This document shows positions 4,836 to 12,873 of a DNA stretch of 14,509 nt, piece by piece. Under the pieces are notes generated by a model. The model did not search any database, had not been told where the DNA came from, and saw nothing but the letters and a program-made list of their open reading frames with translations. The stretch lies in IMG/VR virus record IMGVR_UViG_2778261353_000006, one strand, 5' to 3'. This DNA is from a virus (Duplodnaviria > Heunggongvirae > Uroviricota > Caudoviricetes). Position 1 is the stretch's first letter; each line of letters starts with the position of its first letter. Position numbers and translations under genes: made by a program.

Positions 4836-5290
4836 AGCATCACCTCCTGAAAATTCCCCTGATAAAACGCCAGTACGCGCTGCATAACTTCGCTCTTCCG
4901 GCACTCGCTACAGATTATGTTCTGACGCCTGTCGTAGCGGCGTATTTCTCCGTCTGGTAATGACCAGATAAGGTCCGGATCAACCACAGATGTTTTTTTC
5001 TTCAGCTTTGCCCTTGAGAGTTTTTTGCGGGCGTTTTGCCAGTCCTTACGCGCCTGTTCAGACGGGAATAACCCGTAACCAGAGTTGTACATATCGCCAC
5101 TGGCAACCAGCTCTCTGGCGAGAACGCTGATCAGATATCTTGTCGCACCTGTCTTGGATTCCAGTTGCCGTAACGTCTCGCGCCCACTCCGGCGTACCAG
5201 CTCAACAACCTGCCCTTTAATTTTTTCTCGCTCTTCTTGTGTGAATACTTTTGCCACAAGCCCTCCTGAAAAATCACCTTCACAATTCAT
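4832..5290 (-). CDS. hypothetical protein (152 aa)
   Basis: ATG at 5290 overlaps the P-like stop (ATGA coupling); no family recognised. Confidence 0.65.
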   Translation of the reverse strand: MNCEGDFSGGLVAKVFTQEEREKIKGQVVELVRRSGRETLRQLESKTGATRYLISVLARELVASGDMYNSGYGLFPSEQARKDWQNARKKLSRAKLKKKTSVVDPDLIWSLPDGEIRRYDRRQNIICSECRKSEVMQRVLAFYQGNFQEVML

Positions 5291-5952
5291 ACAAAACCAG
5301 CCGCTTTCCGGCGCTCATATTCCTGTTTCAGCAACTCAATTGGTGTTGGCCCCGACGGACGTTTTGGTGCCGCCAGTTGCCGCCGTACGGGCGGAACGCT
5401 GAGGCCGTTGCCAACATGCTTTGCCCATTTCGTCAGCTGTCGTTCTGCAAGCCGTTTTAACTCCCCTTCGGTCATCTGGCGCTCAATCCCCTGTGAACGC
5501 ATCTCGAGGCAAATGTGATACAGCACAGGTTGAGTCCACGGGTATTTATCGCTTCCGTCGTATCGCCAGGACTCATTGCGCCAGCGTCGGTACTCCTCCA
5601 TCACGGCATCCACCGTCAGACCGAATGGATTGGCCCCGCTTTCCGAAATCAGCGCCACAAACTCAGCCAGGTCCGGAGGCCATGTTTCACCCGCCCGGCA
5701 GCGGTCCATGCACTGGCGGCAGACCTGCCGGATTTGCTGCTCAGTCATCGCACCAATCTGTGCAATCCAGAGCTTCGAAGGTGCGGCCCCGTTCTTCTGG
5801 GTCCAGCGGTTCGAATAAACCTCCCCCATGAGTTCCCACAGCTTCCAGGCCGTTTCCGTCGCTGATAAATCCGTTTTCACGTTCCCACTGCTCACGTGCA
5901 GCCCGAATTTCCTGAACTGCCCGTGATGCGGTGCCACCTGGCGCTGCTGCAT
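5287..5952 (-). CDS. lambda P-like replication protein (helicase loader)
   Basis: ETWPPDLAEFVAL... and DKYPWTQPVLYHICLEMRSQGIERQMTEGELKRLAERQL parallel lambda P (PFLPSPGQFVAW..., ESYPWKSNAHYWLVTNLYQ...TDAELRRKAADEL) as recalled. ATG at 5952 has a GGGGGTGAG SD but overlaps the O-like gene by about 212 nt; alternative ATG at 5829. Confidence 0.7.
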   Translation of the reverse strand: MQQRQVAPHHGQFRKFGLHVSSGNVKTDLSATETAWKLWELMGEVYSNRWTQKNGAAPSKLWIAQIGAMTEQQIRQVCRQCMDRCRAGETWPPDLAEFVALISESGANPFGLTVDAVMEEYRRWRNESWRYDGSDKYPWTQPVLYHICLEMRSQGIERQMTEGELKRLAERQLTKWAKHVGNGLSVPPVRRQLAAPKRPSGPTPIELLKQEYERRKAAGFV

Positions 5953-6781
5953 CTCTCACCCCCTTGCTGACTGGTTTAACCTGTGCCCTGACGTGATTTA
6001 CGTGACGGGCGAATTTCTGCTCCCACTGAACCTGCGTGAACACTTTGCCCTCATCGCTCCAGTAATCCCGGAATGCGGCAAGTTCAGCAGGTGTAAATTC
6101 CGGCTCCGGCAGAGCCACTCCCCACAGAGCCGCCCGTCGTCGAAAATCCCGTGACGGATGCCAGCTATCGGTCATCGGAAATTTTCCGATGGGTTCGCTC
6201 AGGCCATCCAGGAATACGGGTGGCACTGCCTGTAACGACAAAACTTCCTGCTCACTGGTCGGAGCACTCTCGCGTGCGTTATGTGTGGGGTTTAGATCTT
6301 TGGGTTCCTTTGGGTTCCGTGATCCGTTTTTGGGTGTCTTTAATGGAAAATTTGGGTGTCTTTGGTTATTTTCCATACAGAAAAGAGTTCCGTTTCTGGG
6401 GCTGTTTTGTGCTGAAACATAACCGTTTTCGGTACTGTTTTTATTAACAGCACCAATTTTACCCACCTTTAAAGACTCCCGTTTTTGGGTGTATTCAGGC
6501 TCGGCAACACTTTCTTCTACACCGATAAGTCGGTACACTACGATTTGCTTTGTTCGGCCTTTTCTCTCACCGGTATCAACAATTAACCCAATCTCCATCA
6601 GGTGTCGTAAGCTGTCCTGCACAGTCTTTTTGTTCAGTTCCGTTACTTCTGCCAGTGCAGATACAGACGGGTATGCACACAAATCGGCACCGCACATATC
6701 AGCAAGCCAGGTCAATACTGACTTACTGGATGAACTGCCGGTTTTCACCTTTTTAGCCCATCGTAGTGCATCGATACTCAT
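5741..6781 (-). CDS. replication initiator (O-like): N-terminal winged-helix HTH plus C-terminal DnaT-like domain
   Basis: Likely start is ATG 6781 (MSIDALRWAKK..., AGGGG SD); the track start at 6856 adds an implausible 25-aa extension. HTH segment ...SVSALAEVTELNKKTVQDSLRHLMEIGLI...; C-terminal ...PMTDSWHPSRDF...FRDYWSDEGKVFTQVQWEQKFARHV. Confidence 0.7.
   Translation of the reverse strand: MSIDALRWAKKVKTGSSSSKSVLTWLADMCGADLCAYPSVSALAEVTELNKKTVQDSLRHLMEIGLIVDTGERKGRTKQIVVYRLIGVEESVAEPEYTQKRESLKVGKIGAVNKNSTENGYVSAQNSPRNGTLFCMENNQRHPNFPLKTPKNGSRNPKEPKDLNPTHNARESAPTSEQEVLSLQAVPPVFLDGLSEPIGKFPMTDSWHPSRDFRRRAALWGVALPEPEFTPAELAAFRDYWSDEGKVFTQVQWEQKFARHVNHVRAQVKPVSKGVRDAAAPGGTASRAVQEIRAAREQWERENGFISDGNGLEAVGTHGGGLFEPLDPEERGRTFEALDCTDWCDD
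6296..6366. repeat. iteron-like direct repeats (candidate origin) inside the O-like gene
   Basis: TTTGGGTTCC tandem pair (6298-6307, 6308-6317); TTTTTGGGTGTCTTT (6326-6340); TTTGGGTGTCTT (6350-6361); another copy TTTTTGGGTGTATT at 6482-6495; AT-rich stretch about 6437-6475 between them. Confidence 0.5.
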
Positions 6782-7304
6782 ACGAACCCCTGGCAGACAT
6801 TTGTTTATCTGCAAAGTAATATTGGTATTGCTGACGATACGCGTGCTTGAAAGCAATAGCTTTTTCTATAAGCTCGTCAGTCTCACGTTCCACAACAGCT
6901 GGATCCGCAAAAAGCAGCCCGGATTCCACCACATCGCCATATTCTTTGTTTAACCCGGCGATCATGTACGTAATGCTTTTTCCGTCAGTAATTTCACAAT
7001 ACAACCTGAAATCGCTGATCCGGATAGCCTCCATAATTGCCGGAATCAGCGCCGTGAATTTTTCCCGCTTATCCCTGGTGTCGATAGCTTTCCAGCGTTC
7101 GAATATCTTCACCCGGTTAACGCCCAGCGCCCGTTGATCAACCTCGCCATCATTAAACGTGACGCGTTGAACATCGATGTTCGGGCGTTCTTTCAGAGCC
7201 CAGAATGCTTCCGTGATTAATATCGTCGCCTGCTCCTGTGTCATTCCTGGTCGACATACCCAGGCATCCAGAGCCTCACAAACCTGTTCAGGGGTGATTT
7301 TCAT
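6753..7304 (-). CDS. regulatory protein at the cII position, possibly YdaT family
   Basis: ATG at 7304; overlaps the dicC stop by 17 nt. REKFTALIPAIMEAI is reminiscent of YdaT-like proteins; the family assignment is tentative. Confidence 0.6.
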   Translation of the reverse strand: MKITPEQVCEALDAWVCRPGMTQEQATILITEAFWALKERPNIDVQRVTFNDGEVDQRALGVNRVKIFERWKAIDTRDKREKFTALIPAIMEAIRISDFRLYCEITDGKSITYMIAGLNKEYGDVVESGLLFADPAVVERETDELIEKAIAFKHAYRQQYQYYFADKQMSARGSYEYRCTTMG

Positions 7305-7528: not shown

Positions 7529-7542
7529 TTGAGTTTTCTCAA
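7529..7542. promoter_or_regulatory. palindromic operator TTGAGttttCTCAA in the dicC-dicA divergent promoter region
   Basis: Perfect 5-4-5 palindrome between the divergent genes; the same motif recurs at 8063-8076. Confidence 0.45.
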
Positions 7543-7592
7543 TAGTAATAACTCAATGAATCTCAAGTCAAGGGTTATTAAGATATCTAAAT

Positions 7593-8000
7593 ATGAACGA
7601 GAAAACTTTAGGTCAACGAATTAGAGAAAGACGCAAACAGGTTGGTTTAAGTCAAAACGATTTAAGCAAAGCCGCTGGCGTATCTGGCTCATCAATTTCA
7701 CTATGGGAAAGCGACCATACAGCCCCGCGTGGGCAAAATTTGCATCGCCTGGCTGAGGTATTGCAATGTTCACCAACTTGGATACTGTTTGGTGACGAGG
7801 ATAAAACACCAGATCCACCAGTTGCACTCAACAGCGCCTTAGACTTATCGGAAGATGAGTTGGAGATGTTGCGATTGTATCGCGCACTTCCAAAATCAGA
7901 GCAGCAAGCACAAATCAGCGAACTCCGTGCCCGCGTTGAGAATTTTAATCGCCTATTCACCGAGCTACTAGAAGCTCGCAAACGTAACAAACATCAGTAA
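7593..8000 (+). CDS. dicA: DicA-like immunity repressor (XRE HTH, 135 aa)
   Basis: ATG at 7593; N-terminal HTH (LSQNDLSKAAGVSGSSISLWE); the LQCSPTWILFGDEDK motif and 135-aa length match E. coli DicA as recalled. Confidence 0.85.
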   Translation: MNEKTLGQRIRERRKQVGLSQNDLSKAAGVSGSSISLWESDHTAPRGQNLHRLAEVLQCSPTWILFGDEDKTPDPPVALNSALDLSEDELEMLRLYRALPKSEQQAQISELRARVENFNRLFTELLEARKRNKHQ

Positions 8001-9933: not shown

Positions 9934-10122
9934 ATGGAAACGTTATTACCAAACGTTAATACGTCTGAAGGTTGCTTTGAAATTGGTGTCAAAATCAGTA
10001 ACCCAGTATTTACTGAAGATGCCATTAATAAGAGAAAACACGAACGGGAGCTATTAAATCAAATATGCATTGTTTCAATGCTGGCCCGTTTACGTCTGAT
10101 GCAAAAAGGATGCTGGCAGTGA
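9934..10122 (+). CDS. dicB: cell-division inhibitor DicB (62 aa)
   Basis: ATG at 9934 with GAGGA SD 7 nt upstream; METLLPNVNTSEGCFEIGVKISNPVFTEDAINKRKHERELLNQICIVSMLARLRLMQKGCWQ matches DicB as recalled. The track start at 9838 is a spurious extension. Confidence 0.85.
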   Translation: METLLPNVNTSEGCFEIGVKISNPVFTEDAINKRKHERELLNQICIVSMLARLRLMQKGCWQ

Positions 10123-10401: not shown

Positions 10402-12873
10402 ATGAGTAAAGTCTTTATTTGCGCCGCTATTCCGGACGAACAGGCAATAAAGGAAGAAGGTGCAGTCGCTGTAGCCACTGCCATTGAAGCTGGCGACGAA
10501 CGCCGCGCCCGTGCCAAATTTACCTGGCAATTCCTGGAGCAATATCCGGCTGCTCAGGACTGCGCTTATAAATTTCTTGTTTGCGAGGATAAACCCGGTA
10601 TACCCCGCCCTGCCCTCGATTCCTGGGATGCTGAATATATGCAGGAAAACCGCTGGGATGAGGAGTCAGCTTCCTTTGTCCCGGTTGAGACTGAATCAGA
10701 TCCGATGAACGTCACTTTTGACAACCTAGCCCCTGAAGTACAGAACGCTGTCATGGTTAAGTTCGACACATGTGAAAACATCACTGTTGATATGGTGATT
10801 AGCGCACAGGAATTGTTGCAGGAAGACATGGCAACATTCGACGGCCATATCGTTGAAGCGTTGATGAAAATGCCAGAAGTTAACGCTATGTATCCGGAGC
10901 TTAAGCTGCATGCCATCGGGTGGGTTAAGCATAAATGTAAGCCTGGTGCCAAATGGCCCGAAATTCAGGCAGAGATGCGCATCTGGAAAAAACGTCGCGA
11001 AGGTGAACGCAAGGAAGCCGGAAAATACACGTCTGTTGTTGATCTCGCCCGCGCCAGAGCCAATCAACAGCACACTGAAAATTCAACAGGAAAAATCAAC
11101 CCGGTCATTGCTGCCATTCATCGCGAATACAAGCAGACATGGAAAACACTGGATGACGAACTGGCCTACGCTCTCTGGCCTGGTGATGTGGATGCCGGAA
11201 ACATTGACGGCAGCATCCATCGCTGGGCAAAAAATGAAGTTATCGACAACGACCGCGAAGACTGGAAGCGTATCTCGGCATCAATGCGCAAACAGCCTGA
11301 TGCCCTTCGCTACGACCGCCAGACTATTTTTGGCCTTGTCCGTGAACGTCCGATCGACATTCACAAAGACCCTGTGGCACTGAACAAATACATTACTGAA
11401 TACCTGACTACAAAGGGCGTGTTTGAAGATGAAGGAACAAATCAGAGCGCAACTGATACTCTCTCGTCGCCAGTACCAGAAACTGATGCAGTGGAAACGG
11501 CAATTCCGGACAACGAAAAAACCGAATGCAAAGTGGAAGTCGAACCATCTGTAGAACGTGAGGGGCCGTTCTACTTCCTCTTCACCGACAAGGATGGCGA
11601 AAAATACGGTCGCGCAAACAAACTTTCTGGTCTGGATAAGGCGCTGTCTGCCGGGGCTACTGAAATCACGAAAGAAGAATATTTCGCCCGCAAAAACGGT
11701 ACATACTCAGGTTCACAACAAAATACTGGTGCATCTGACACGACCGCACAACCAGGGTCAGTAAAAGTTACCGCTGACGAAGTAAACAACATTATGCAGG
11801 CAGCCAATATCAGCCAGCCTGACGCCGATGAACTGCTTGCAGTATCACGTGGTGAATTTGTTGAAGGGATTAGCGACCCGAATGATCCGAAATGGGTGAA
11901 GGGAATTGAAACCCGCGATTCTGTGAACCAGAACCAGCAAGAAACGGAACAGAACGGCCAGAAAGCGGATCAAAACAGCCCAAATACGCAACAAAACGAG
12001 CCAGAAACGAAACAATCCGAACCAGTAGCGCAACAGGAACCGGAAAAGATCTGCACCGCCTGCGGTCAGACCGGCGGCGGCAACTGCCCTGATTGTGGCG
12101 CGATGATGGGCGACGCAACATACCAGGAAACGTTCGATGACGAGAATCAGGTCGAAGTTCAGGAAGACAATTCGGAGAAAATGGAAGGCGCTGAACATCC
12201 ACACAAGGAGAATGCTGGCAGCGCTCAGGACCACGCCAGCGATAGTGAAACTGGCGAGACGGCAGATCCCTTAATTGCGGTGAACAGTCATCACATTATC
12301 ACATCCACCAGCAGAGTGTGGACTCACCTGTCGGTCGACCTTGAAACGATGGGAACAAATCCTGATGCACCAATCAACTCTATTGGCGGTAAATTCTTTG
12401 ACCCGACAACCGGAGAGATGGGGCCGGAATTCAGCAAAGCTATCGATCTGGAAACATCTGGCGGAATCATCGACCGGAAAACAATAAAGTGGTGGGCGAA
12501 GCGATCACGCGAAGCGCAATCTGCCATTTTTACCGATGAAATCCCGTTAGATGACGCTCTACTGCAATTACGGGAATTTATCAACGAAAACTCCGGCGAA
12601 AGCTTTGTCCAGATCTGGGGAAATGGAGCCAACTTCGACAATGTGATTTTACGCCGTTCATATGAACGGCAGGGGATCCCCTGCCCGTGGCGTTACTACA
12701 ACGATCGCGATGTGCGCACAATTGTTGAACTGGGAAATTCCATTGGCTTTGATGTCAGAATGGCTATTCCATTCGAAGGTGTACCCCACAATGCACTTGA
12801 TGATGCACGTCACCAGGCAAAACAAGTTTCAGCAATCTGGCAAAAACTGATCCCAAGTCAGGCTGATTTTTAA
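10402..12873 (+). CDS. exodeoxyribonuclease VIII-like / YdfE-family protein (823 aa) with Cys4 zinc ribbon and C-terminal DEDDh (DnaQ-like) 3'-5' exonuclease domain
   Basis: ATG at 10402, GAGGT SD. C-terminal motifs VDLETMG (Exo I), GANFDNVIL (Exo II), HNALDDARHQ (Exo III). CTACGQTGGGNCPDCG zinc ribbon and Q/E/N-rich linkers in the middle. Occupies the exo/recE slot upstream of xis-int. Confidence 0.85.
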   Translation: MSKVFICAAIPDEQAIKEEGAVAVATAIEAGDERRARAKFTWQFLEQYPAAQDCAYKFLVCEDKPGIPRPALDSWDAEYMQENRWDEESASFVPVETESDPMNVTFDNLAPEVQNAVMVKFDTCENITVDMVISAQELLQEDMATFDGHIVEALMKMPEVNAMYPELKLHAIGWVKHKCKPGAKWPEIQAEMRIWKKRREGERKEAGKYTSVVDLARARANQQHTENSTGKINPVIAAIHREYKQTWKTLDDELAYALWPGDVDAGNIDGSIHRWAKNEVIDNDREDWKRISASMRKQPDALRYDRQTIFGLVRERPIDIHKDPVALNKYITEYLTTKGVFEDEGTNQSATDTLSSPVPETDAVETAIPDNEKTECKVEVEPSVEREGPFYFLFTDKDGEKYGRANKLSGLDKALSAGATEITKEEYFARKNGTYSGSQQNTGASDTTAQPGSVKVTADEVNNIMQAANISQPDADELLAVSRGEFVEGISDPNDPKWVKGIETRDSVNQNQQETEQNGQKADQNSPNTQQNEPETKQSEPVAQQEPEKICTACGQTGGGNCPDCGAMMGDATYQETFDDENQVEVQEDNSEKMEGAEHPHKENAGSAQDHASDSETGETADPLIAVNSHHIITSTSRVWTHLSVDLETMGTNPDAPINSIGGKFFDPTTGEMGPEFSKAIDLETSGGIIDRKTIKWWAKRSREAQSAIFTDEIPLDDALLQLREFINENSGESFVQIWGNGANFDNVILRRSYERQGIPCPWRYYNDRDVRTIVELGNSIGFDVRMAIPFEGVPHNALDDARHQAKQVSAIWQKLIPSQADF

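Follow-up and report, generated by a model that had tools for sequence, protein, structure and literature searches.

The replication region and its repeats

In the current analysis we characterise a repeat cluster located within a replication initiator gene of a lambdoid prophage of Escherichia coli, represented by a viral sequence of 14,509 nucleotides (nt) (IMG/VR record IMGVR_UViG_2778261353_000006; hereafter the window, meaning this whole stretch of DNA). The initiator gene and the lambda-P-like helicase loader gene that follows it are both encoded on the minus strand (Table 1), the start of the latter overlapping the stop of the former (ATGACTGA, as read from the sequence). An earlier reading of this DNA from its letters (the first-pass annotation) had proposed that iterons and an AT-rich tract embedded in an O-like initiator gene form a prophage origin arranged as in phage lambda; the interval it marked falls inside a minus-strand gene, because the initiator itself occupies that strand (5741-6781). 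No origin annotation of this replication module was present in the database records examined.

The heptamer TTTGGGT occurs six times in the 14.5-kb window, and five of these copies lie on the plus strand within 192 nt (at 6299, 6309, 6329, 6351 and 6484), while no other cluster of this motif was found in the window. When the window was shuffled 300 times with dinucleotide composition preserved, same-strand hits per 200 nt averaged 0.98 with a maximum of two, as opposed to the five observed, and local shuffling of 6280-6520 reached five hits in 0 of 2000 trials. The iteron cluster of about 200 nt that had been annotated is therefore real, and the GC content across 6310-6520 (0.35-0.45) is lower than that across 5560-6280 (0.50-0.68).

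The repeats of the first-pass annotation are thus present, but the unit it put forward, TTTGGGTGTCTT (exact at 6329 and 6351, with one mismatch at 6484 and two at 6299), is the reverse complement of the 5' half of the coding-strand unit plus flanking sequence. The coding-strand unit is CCCAAAAACGG(G), which the gene holds twice in exact form, twice in degenerate form, once as a palindrome-like variant (CCCAAATTTTCC) and once more in a decayed state (Table 1). All iterons are on the coding strand with start-to-start spacings of 56, 33, 44 and 22 nt, which approximate multiples of 11; they lie 28-190 nt past the end of the N-terminal domain of the initiator and, at 6324-6489, encode amino acids (aa) 97-153. 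The iteron may be described as an imperfect dyad of approximately 12-18 bp around the core CCCAAAAACGG(G), and a position matrix compiled from 147 sites in 30 protein clusters reads A..AGT-CCCAAAAACGG-nAC with a weak dyad. The arms of this dyad, weak in the window (I1 having ACACCC/GGGAGT), are clearer in phage phiV10 (GATCCC..GGGATC) and in IMG/VR contig 3300023215_001397, designated L129 (TTACCC..GGGTAA), where full dyads are obvious (GATCCCAAAAACGGGATC and TTACCCAAAAACGGGTAA, respectively).

Table 1. Positions of the replication genes, repeats and associated elements in the window
Feature	Position	Strand	Description
pR-like promoter	7542-7571	-	Predicted sigma-70 promoter, TTGACT-18-TACTAT (consensus match only); upstream of the cro-like, YdaT/CII-like, initiator and P-like genes
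Initiator gene	5741-6781	-	346 aa; open reading frame (ORF) and translation
I1	6479-6489	-	Exact CCCAAAAACGG; context ACACCCAAAAACGGGAGT; first core C at 6489; frame 1 (TQKR)
AT-rich tract	6433-6475		Lowest stability in the gene; up to 73% AT; between I1 and I2
Decayed iteron	6453-6463	-	GGTAAAATTGG; inside the AT-rich tract; from DNA alignment of orthologues
I2	6423-6433	-	ACCGAAAACGG, 2 mismatches; context AGTACCGAAAACGGTTA; first base of the 11-nt core at 6433; frame 0 (TENG)
I3	6390-6400	-	CCCAGAAACGG, 1 mismatch; context AGCCCCAGAAACGGAAC; first core C at 6400; frame 0 (PRNG)
I4	6345-6356	-	Palindrome-like CCCAAATTTTCC; context GACACCCAAATTTTCCAT; first core C at 6356; HPNFP, not frame 0
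I5	6324-6334	-	Exact CCCAAAAACGG; context GACACCCAAAAACGGATC; first core C at 6334; frame 0 (PKNG)
10-nt tandem	6298-6318	-	Second repeat class, perfect GGAACCCAAAG x2 (GGAACCCAAAGGAACCCAAAG), from Tandem Repeats Finder (TRF); directly 3' of the last iteron; NPK / EPK
19-mer	6280-6298	-	GATCTAAACCCCACACATA, with a GATC site; almost invariant in DNA across four genera
Helicase loader gene	5287-5748	-	Lambda-P-like, 153 aa; Pfam Phage_lambda_P (8.3e-16); PHROG P-like helicase loader (1e-54)

The individual copies differ in the extent to which they are kept. The core of I1 is invariant in 52 unique E. coli variants and is maintained in the full-length orthologues of Enterobacter, Klebsiella and Salmonella (50-57% identity), while I5 is invariant in the same 52 variants and in all four aligned genera, residues P150, K151, N152 and G153 also being invariant in the protein alignment. 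I4, with a single variable site among the 52 variants, is represented in the orthologues by CCCGTTTTTTCC or CCGTTTTTCC; it is comparable to the CCCAAATTTGGG-type copies of Acinetobacter phage AP22 and Burkholderia phage Bcep176 and to the AAATT centre of lambda iteron 3. At 6396, I3 carries an A-to-G change, where A in all 51 other aligned E. coli variants gives an AAAAA centre, and most of those variants hold an exact CCCAAAAACGG. The degenerate I2 reads ACCGAAAATGG in most close relatives, and the decayed copy aligns with a good CCCAAAAACGG-type iteron in the Enterobacter, Klebsiella and Salmonella orthologues. In the DNA alignment of the four genera, the iterons stand out as conserved islands and the linker varies in length by whole iteron units.

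Two copies that had been counted as iterons, of the form TTTGGGTTCC, are present as described, but they constitute the perfect 10-nt tandem of Table 1. This tandem is not an iteron variant and forms a distinct, positionally conserved class. Across 32 clusters of N-terminal domains, the best 9-13-nt tandem in the 70 nt past the last iteron had a mean identity of 0.795, compared to 0.665 and 0.647 in controls (Wilcoxon p = 2e-4 and 4e-5), and an identity of at least 0.9 was attained in 28% of clusters versus 0% of controls. These tandems usually contain GAACC or GAATC (GAAYC) and have units of 10-13 nt, examples being two to three copies of GGAATCTCCCAA in a Desulfovibrio metagenome-assembled genome (MAG), GAACCTAYCAAG, and three copies of AACCAGTCATAT in phiV10; the GAAYC tandem is an observation of this analysis for which there is no established criterion. 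The pairing of iterons with a tandem behind them recurs after homologous N-terminal domains in phages and prophages of many Proteobacteria. In one close relative (L011:1963-1993, IMG/VR contig 2663762939_000017) the segment equivalent to 6298-6318 contains three GGAACCCAAA units instead of two, a 10-nt slippage that shifts the reading frame and truncates the initiator just past the iterons (ending …NPKEPKGTQRSKPHT, then stop).

The initiator, its module boundary and its family

The initiator is composed of a winged-helix N-terminal domain (aa 1-88), a linker (aa 89-195), a DnaT-like single-stranded DNA (ssDNA)-binding domain (aa 201-267) and a C-terminal tail. Pfam analysis identified DnaT at aa 201-267 (8.4e-18) and HTH_36 at aa 36-67 (3.5e-4), the latter below its curated cut-off (20.7 bits versus 25), while the protein matches the PHROG replication initiation protein family phrog_1032 (1.4e-87) and carries the RefSeq product name DnaT-like ssDNA-binding domain-containing protein. 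In an AlphaFold2 model built on an alignment of 20 sequences, aa 1-88 adopt a helix-turn-helix with a beta-hairpin wing, with predicted local distance difference test (pLDDT) scores mostly of 66-86 and a dip near aa 32-34, and aa 200-267 form a confident helical domain; the intervening aa 89-195 score 24-32 and, save for one short helix (99-102), are almost without structure, so that a linker of approximately 105 residues is predicted to be disordered. Foldseek aligned the helical domain with the DnaT ssDNA-binding domain (6aeq/4ou6; 57-58% identity, TM-score 0.9), whereas the N-terminal domain returned generic winged-helix matches only, including RepA_N plasmid initiators (E of approximately 1e-2). 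The placement of the cluster in the part of the gene encoding an interdomain linker is thereby borne out, as the two Pfam domains flank the repeats, which together encode aa 97-161 within the segment of pLDDT below 50.

The 3' end of the repeats coincides exactly with a mosaic boundary. The 19-mer GATCTAAACCCCACACATA (Table 1) marks the point at which similarity to YdaU of phage Rac-SA53 begins, and YdaU as well as many other E. coli proteins share aa 161-346 only. At 82-89% identity, this portion, comprising the DnaT-like domain and tail, recurs in E. coli proteins whose N-terminal modules are of quite another kind (DUF1376/YdaU, 'phage replisome organizer', or T5orf172 plus DUF1376). Since similarity breaks at this position, the N-terminal domain and the repeats form one exchangeable module, and their inheritance as one block would make them the specificity module. 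The DnaT-like half travels with its P-like partner, as is classical for lambdoid origin specificity.

The repeats are retained well beyond the enterobacteria. The motif occupies the same place, just past the N-terminal domain, in phiV10, Vibrio phage Her, AP22 and Bcep176, whose N-terminal domains (phiV10 gp43, Bcep176 gp11, AP22 gp76 and Her_0038) are 38-48% identical to that of the window over 87 aa and share 22 invariant columns with it, including a DTGE.G.T wing motif; these relatives pass the Pfam HTH_36 cut-off, unlike the window protein. Conservation of the repeats in homologous initiator genes, on which the earlier proposal depended, extended to N-terminal identities as low as 33-48% in four bacterial orders. 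To quantify this, 80 loci were picked solely by the similarity of their N-terminal domain to a Burkholderia/Acinetobacter/Vibrio alignment (this second, Burkholderia-led alignment was used because the first viral scan had yielded near-identical E. coli loci only). Two or more copies were present within 300 nt past the N-terminal domain in 65 of the 80 loci, at a density of 8.8 per kb versus 0.146 per kb elsewhere in the loci, i.e. approximately 60-fold higher. In the converse test, 120 viral contigs were retrieved by the pattern CCCAAAAACGG-N7-37-CCCAAAAACGG alone; 108 ORFs spanning the pair encode a homologous N-terminal domain and two further contigs (L180 and L138) proved positive on inspection, giving at least 110 of 120, and 97.7% of copies fell 0-300 nt past the domain. 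The window itself conforms to the family array, with four copies of no more than two mismatches plus the I4 variant, on the coding strand and past the N-terminal domain. This initiator family is different from lambda O, widespread and so far uncharacterised.

It could be argued that some other protein (the YdaT/CII-like regulator or a host factor) binds the repeats, or that they act as recombination hot spots and so give rise to the mosaicism, given that a mosaic junction lies at their 3' edge and that a core shared by initiators only 33-48% identical makes a common host factor conceivable. We regard this as very improbable, as the motif follows the initiator N-terminal domain across distant hosts (in Burkholderia, Vibrio and Acinetobacter hosts and in a Desulfovibrio MAG), whatever the neighbouring regulator or C-terminal domain, and we know of no host-factor sites that match the repeats.

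A further question is whether the repeats merely reflect a repeated linker peptide (xPKNG / xENG) and have no function at the DNA level. Three of the four CCCAAAAACGG-like copies in the window are in frame 0 (TENG, PRNG and PKNG), as are 80% of copies in the motif-selected viral set, and PKNG is invariant in the enterobacterial protein alignment. This explanation is nevertheless hardly credible. The five full and two half copies of the window occupy all three reading frames, I1 (TQKR), I4 (HPNFP) and the two 10-mers (NPK / EPK) being in the others, and in the protein-selected set the copies are distributed over the frames as 77/68/64, with a modal spacing of 17 nt and spacings that are often not multiples of three, as expected of a DNA element rather than a peptide repeat. 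Furthermore, the six PKNG peptides of that set are uniformly coded CCC AAA AAC (6/6, a small number), although other parts of these genes commonly use synonymous codons, and the motif is also encountered in non-coding arrays. The peptide-repeat explanation was consequently rejected, and the repeats are not accounted for by amino-acid motifs alone. A -1 frameshift site (C CCA AAA) was likewise rejected, a minority of copies being in the required frame.

Several contigs display the motif outside the setting described above. In L182 (6211-6353), L117, L190 and L165 (all IMG/VR), apparently non-coding TCCCAAAAACGGGTACATTCAAAA arrays with a 24-nt period precede palindromic CCCAAAATTGGG copies and an inverted CCGTTTTTGG, with no initiator ORF spanning the array, which may mean that the contigs retain a non-genic origin with iterons of this type. 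When genome contigs were scanned for the two-iteron pattern, 43 of 120 matches were associated with the N-terminal domain, while the other 77, from very diverse phyla, were not and comprised heterogeneous arrays, which may be plasmid iterons, other repeats or contamination. Long tandem arrays with a CCCAAAAACGG core (e.g. 6-13 copies of TGTTTTTCCCAAAAACGGAGCA) were noted in L401, L385 and L409 (22-nt period), L346 (Methanosarcinaceae MAG, 17-nt) and L338 (Chitinophagaceae MAG, 42-nt), with no HTH_36-type domain detected upstream. L129 (2346-3138) encodes a true Phage_rep_O initiator (4e-32) whose gene carries five TTACCCAAA(AA/TT)CGGGTAA iterons and then an AT-rich tract; because it shares the core motif, the two initiator classes overlap in iteron type, which ties the motif to origins of the lambda O class.

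With regard to gene context, the 1201-nt query 5700-6900 (the initiator gene and flanks) is 100% identical to prophage DNA in the chromosome of E. coli UTAK-3 and to four other complete genomes; matches to related DNA came from 1343 of the 5426 complete E. coli genomes searched, 907 of them matching 80% or more of the query. At 95% aa identity, the initiator also occurs in 'PPompW' prophages and Shiga toxin (Stx) 2a phages. The minus-strand order is pR-like promoter, cro-like gene, YdaT/CII-like gene (6753-7304), initiator, lambda-P-like gene and DUF977, while the plus strand encodes an integrase, an excisionase, an 823-aa exonuclease, dicB, ydfABC and a cI-like repressor gene (7593-8000). Taken together, the RefSeq, Pfam and PHROG assignments describe an early region of lambdoid type, and the relatives in Enterobacter, Klebsiella and Salmonella share its gene order. 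Transcription from the pR-like promoter would run across the array, at which the search for internal promoters and terminators gave a single terminator-like hairpin (antisense strand, 6386-6403), within chance expectation. The 'toxin YdaT family' gene matches CII-like transcriptional activators in PHROG (7e-42) and occupies the cII position of lambda, hence its label 'toxin' is probably misleading. The P-like loader is short, covering positions 50-161 of the 162-position Pfam lambda-P model; its lack of an N-terminal part fits a partner other than lambda O.

Additional observations concern the wider prophage. Just past window position 1, the UTAK-3 chromosome (L001:55-1273) encodes a scabin-related ADP-ribosyltransferase and a subtilase-family AB5 toxin binding subunit, adjoining the DUF1133 / RusA late-regulatory region, which is the Stx-gene position in Stx phages. 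An imperfect 21-nt tandem repeat of approximately 4.5 copies (GAAACAAAACGAGCCAGAAAC; 11925-12035) is located inside the exonuclease gene (10402-12873), and a near-perfect 13-nt tandem (1.9 copies of AAACGTTAATACC; 9938-9962, by TRF) lies in the early-left region.

A putative lambda-type origin

Based on the clustering of the repeats, their location in the linker, the loader context, the deep conservation, the DNA-level constraint and the mosaic boundary, we conclude that 6298-6493 is probably a functional lambda-type origin of this E. coli lambdoid (Rac/PPompW-like) prophage, situated inside its own initiator gene, with the repeats as its putative initiator-binding sites. In the proposed mechanism, transcription from the pR-like promoter following induction would lead to production of the initiator, whose N-terminal domains would fill the A-tract-containing iterons to generate an O-some-like, bent nucleoprotein complex. 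The stress exerted by this complex together with transcription through the site would open adjacent DNA, the likeliest place being the tandem at 6298-6318 and the alternative the tract at 6433-6475. The DnaT-like domain may then hold the single strand, while the C-terminal part would recruit the P-like protein with host DnaB, and DnaB, once loaded, would permit bidirectional replication.

As regards the unwinding element, the AT-rich stretch that had been annotated at 6437-6475 does exist, but it is of modest strength and has not been kept by orthologues. Stability within the gene is lowest in the 30-mer 6433-6462, which is 73% AT with a free-energy change (dG) of -33.7, versus a window mean of -40.6 (standard deviation 3.4), and it is unlikely that the tract serves as a conserved unwinding element. 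The tandem at 6298-6318 is the better candidate for an unwinding or loading site, since its position corresponds to that of the AT-rich tract of lambda. In the genes of Enterobacter, Klebsiella and Salmonella, the 30-mer of lowest stability (63-67% AT) maps to this same position, 3' of the last iteron, and the family-averaged AT profile shows only a small rise after the array (0.58-0.61 versus approximately 0.53). The tandem of the window is less AT-rich than in the orthologues, at only about 57% AT, and a role in unwinding can for that reason be no more than inferred.

A number of findings weigh against the origin interpretation. At least twelve 30-mers elsewhere in the window are less stable than 6433-6462, and no strong AT-rich unwinding element is apparent; the AT-rich tract is not conserved, the orthologues holding an extra iteron at that position; and 6250-6290, just downstream of the array, is GC-rich, unlike the corresponding part of lambda. 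Searches in and near the array for DnaA boxes and sites of integration host factor (IHF) returned nothing above chance. Among the 52 E. coli variants, approximately 11 of 76 iteron-core positions vary versus 28 of 145 elsewhere (hand count), hence the core is not clearly less variable; conservation among such close variants was not discriminating, I2 and I3 being no less variable than the spacers. Homology to lambda O could also not be demonstrated: no match to Pfam Phage_rep_O (PF04492) was obtained at E of 0.01 or lower, and hhalign against the N-terminal part of lambda O was insignificant (E 0.012, probability 3.6%). The 'O-like' designation of the initiator accordingly stands for its role and layout, but not for membership of the lambda O family, from which the DnaT-like C-terminal domain also sets it apart. 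PHROG 'replication initiation O-like' families do match the N-terminal part (1e-7 to 1e-11), and a remote relationship to lambda O is therefore possible.

Two of the window iterons are degenerate and one has decayed, which raises the prospect that the origin features are genuine but belong to a decayed, inactive relic in this prophage. The off-consensus base of I3 at 6396, the degeneracy of I2 and the lost copy are in keeping with this, as are the lower AT content of the tandem relative to its orthologues and the frameshifting slippage in L011, which shows that inactivation happens. We nonetheless deem a relic improbable: the initiator and P-like ORFs are intact, as are I1, I4 and I5, and the sequence is maintained in the five identical genomes and the 907 E. 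coli genomes matching at least 80% of the query. Moreover, lambda needs just a pair of iterons plus the AT-rich tract beside them for unwinding and in vitro replication (PMC7466680, citing Dodson 1986 and Wickner & McKenney 1987).

Iterons of plasmids also act in copy control, and the repeats of the window might correspondingly bind the initiator for autoregulation, titration or exclusion, with the true origin elsewhere in the prophage. The want of a convincing unwinding element beside the array would agree with such a role, as would the reported involvement of lambda iterons, when cloned, in an exclusion phenotype (PMC3349717). This purely regulatory function appears, if anything, slightly less probable than a relic, in view of the constant position beside a second conserved tandem and the loader gene, which matches origins, the lack of any other cluster of the motif in the window, and the classic AT-rich tract that follows the array in the related Phage_rep_O example (L129).

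If a lambda-type origin is accepted, knowledge of the origin and initiator module would help to predict which prophages replicate after induction, with consequences for toxin-gene dosage and escape replication, to understand incompatibility and cross-activation among co-resident prophages, and to build origin plasmids for the family; the module is present in prophages of the PPompW type in Stx-producing E. coli. A more far-reaching and speculative proposal, which we rate as unlikely as a whole, is that CCCAAAAACGG(G) is the near-universal core iteron of a winged-helix initiator superfamily and that the GAAYC tandem is the unwinding/loading element read by the DnaT-like domain. Such a superfamily may encompass the HTH_36 type, at least one true Phage_rep_O protein and possibly proteins acting on the non-coding 17-, 22-, 24- and 42-nt arrays, which derive from viral contigs and from genomes labelled Bacteroidota, Methanosarcinaceae and others. 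Were the core near-universal, origin specificity would not reside in it, and co-resident prophages, satellites and plasmids could cross-fire or titrate initiators; were the tandem reading correct, it would represent a previously unrecognised phage analogue of the 13-mers of oriC.

Comparison with known replication systems

The principle of an origin within the initiator gene is textbook knowledge; what is apparently undescribed here is its use with another initiator family, another iteron and a candidate second repeat element. A full-text literature search, which included the motif string, retrieved no description of this origin or motif, and a paper on Eru-type Stx phages does not cover the module.

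The closest parallel is oriLambda and the corresponding origins of Stx phages P27 and 933W (6 iterons), which likewise lie in the middle of the initiator gene between its N-terminal origin-binding and C-terminal parts (PMC7466680). Comparative sequence evidence supports the lambda-like arrangement suggested by the first-pass annotation. In both systems several iterons share one orientation and are built in a C-tract / A-tract / G-tract style, with an alternation of AAAAC to AAATT (lambda iteron 3; I4 of the window), a P-type loader gene follows directly downstream, the unit is transcribed from pR, and the N-terminal part and iterons form one exchangeable module. The differences are nonetheless clear, as had also been anticipated for the motif: lambda iterons are 18 bp (e.g. 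ATCCCTCAAAACGAGGGA) and spaced by approximately 20-24 nt, whereas the core CCCAAAAACGG(G) brings CCC and GGG 3 bp closer and its spacing is irregular (22-56 nt), and the window iterons do not form 18-19-bp inverted repeats of the ATCCCTCAAAACGAGGGA type. Where lambda has a 40-bp tract of approximately 80% AT (ACAAAAGACACTATTACAAAAGAAAAAAGAAAAGATTATT after the iterons), the window has the GAAYC-type 10-nt tandem, and where O has its own C-terminal domain, the window initiator has a DnaT-like ssDNA-binding domain. The lambda solution, with the origin in the linker of its own initiator, would thus hold for another initiator family as well, one that is very widespread and has a conserved core iteron.

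The winged-helix N-terminal domain is also found in the RepA_N initiators of Firmicutes (RepA of pSK41/pSK1; 4pql, 4pt7 and 5kbj). In RepA_N plasmids the origin iterons lie inside the central region of the rep gene. There is, however, no sequence-family match, the likeness in fold is generic, and hosts, C-terminal domains and iterons differ. Host DnaT resembles the initiator in its ssDNA-binding domain, which matches aa 201-267, but the full DnaT architecture is not present, as its N-terminal PriB-interacting part is replaced by the winged helix and iteron-bearing linker, and the window gene is located in a prophage early operon.

The Rac prophage and Rac-SA53 share more of the locus: aa 161-346 of the initiator are 86% identical to YdaU, and the P-like gene, xisR, the exonuclease and ydaT are common to both. 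The N-terminus of YdaU is DUF1376, in contrast to the winged helix of the window, and no comparable CCCAAAAACGG array was found in the ydaU gene of Rac-SA53. The Rac origin of E. coli K-12, oriJ, has been cited as active (PMC3945230; Potrykus 2000, as given in PMC11014345); a sequence-level mapping of oriJ was not found.

Finally, the chromosomal DopC/DopE pair of Cellvibrionales and Oceanospirillales (Brezellec et al. 2017, PMC5509034) has the same composition, with an HTH_36 N-terminus and DnaT C-terminal-type domain followed by a lambda-P-like protein. That study describes the two proteins as domesticated lambda O/P, with DopC derived from lambda O and the DnaT-type domain as a substitution; dopC reportedly has no iterons and does not coincide with a replication origin (PMC5509034). 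The window pair differs in being prophage-borne and iteron-bearing. Because initiators combining HTH_36 and DnaT are abundant in phages, they may be a more direct source of DopC than lambda O, and the pair described here would represent the phage-borne, iteron-bearing counterpart of the domesticated, iteron-less DopC/DopE.

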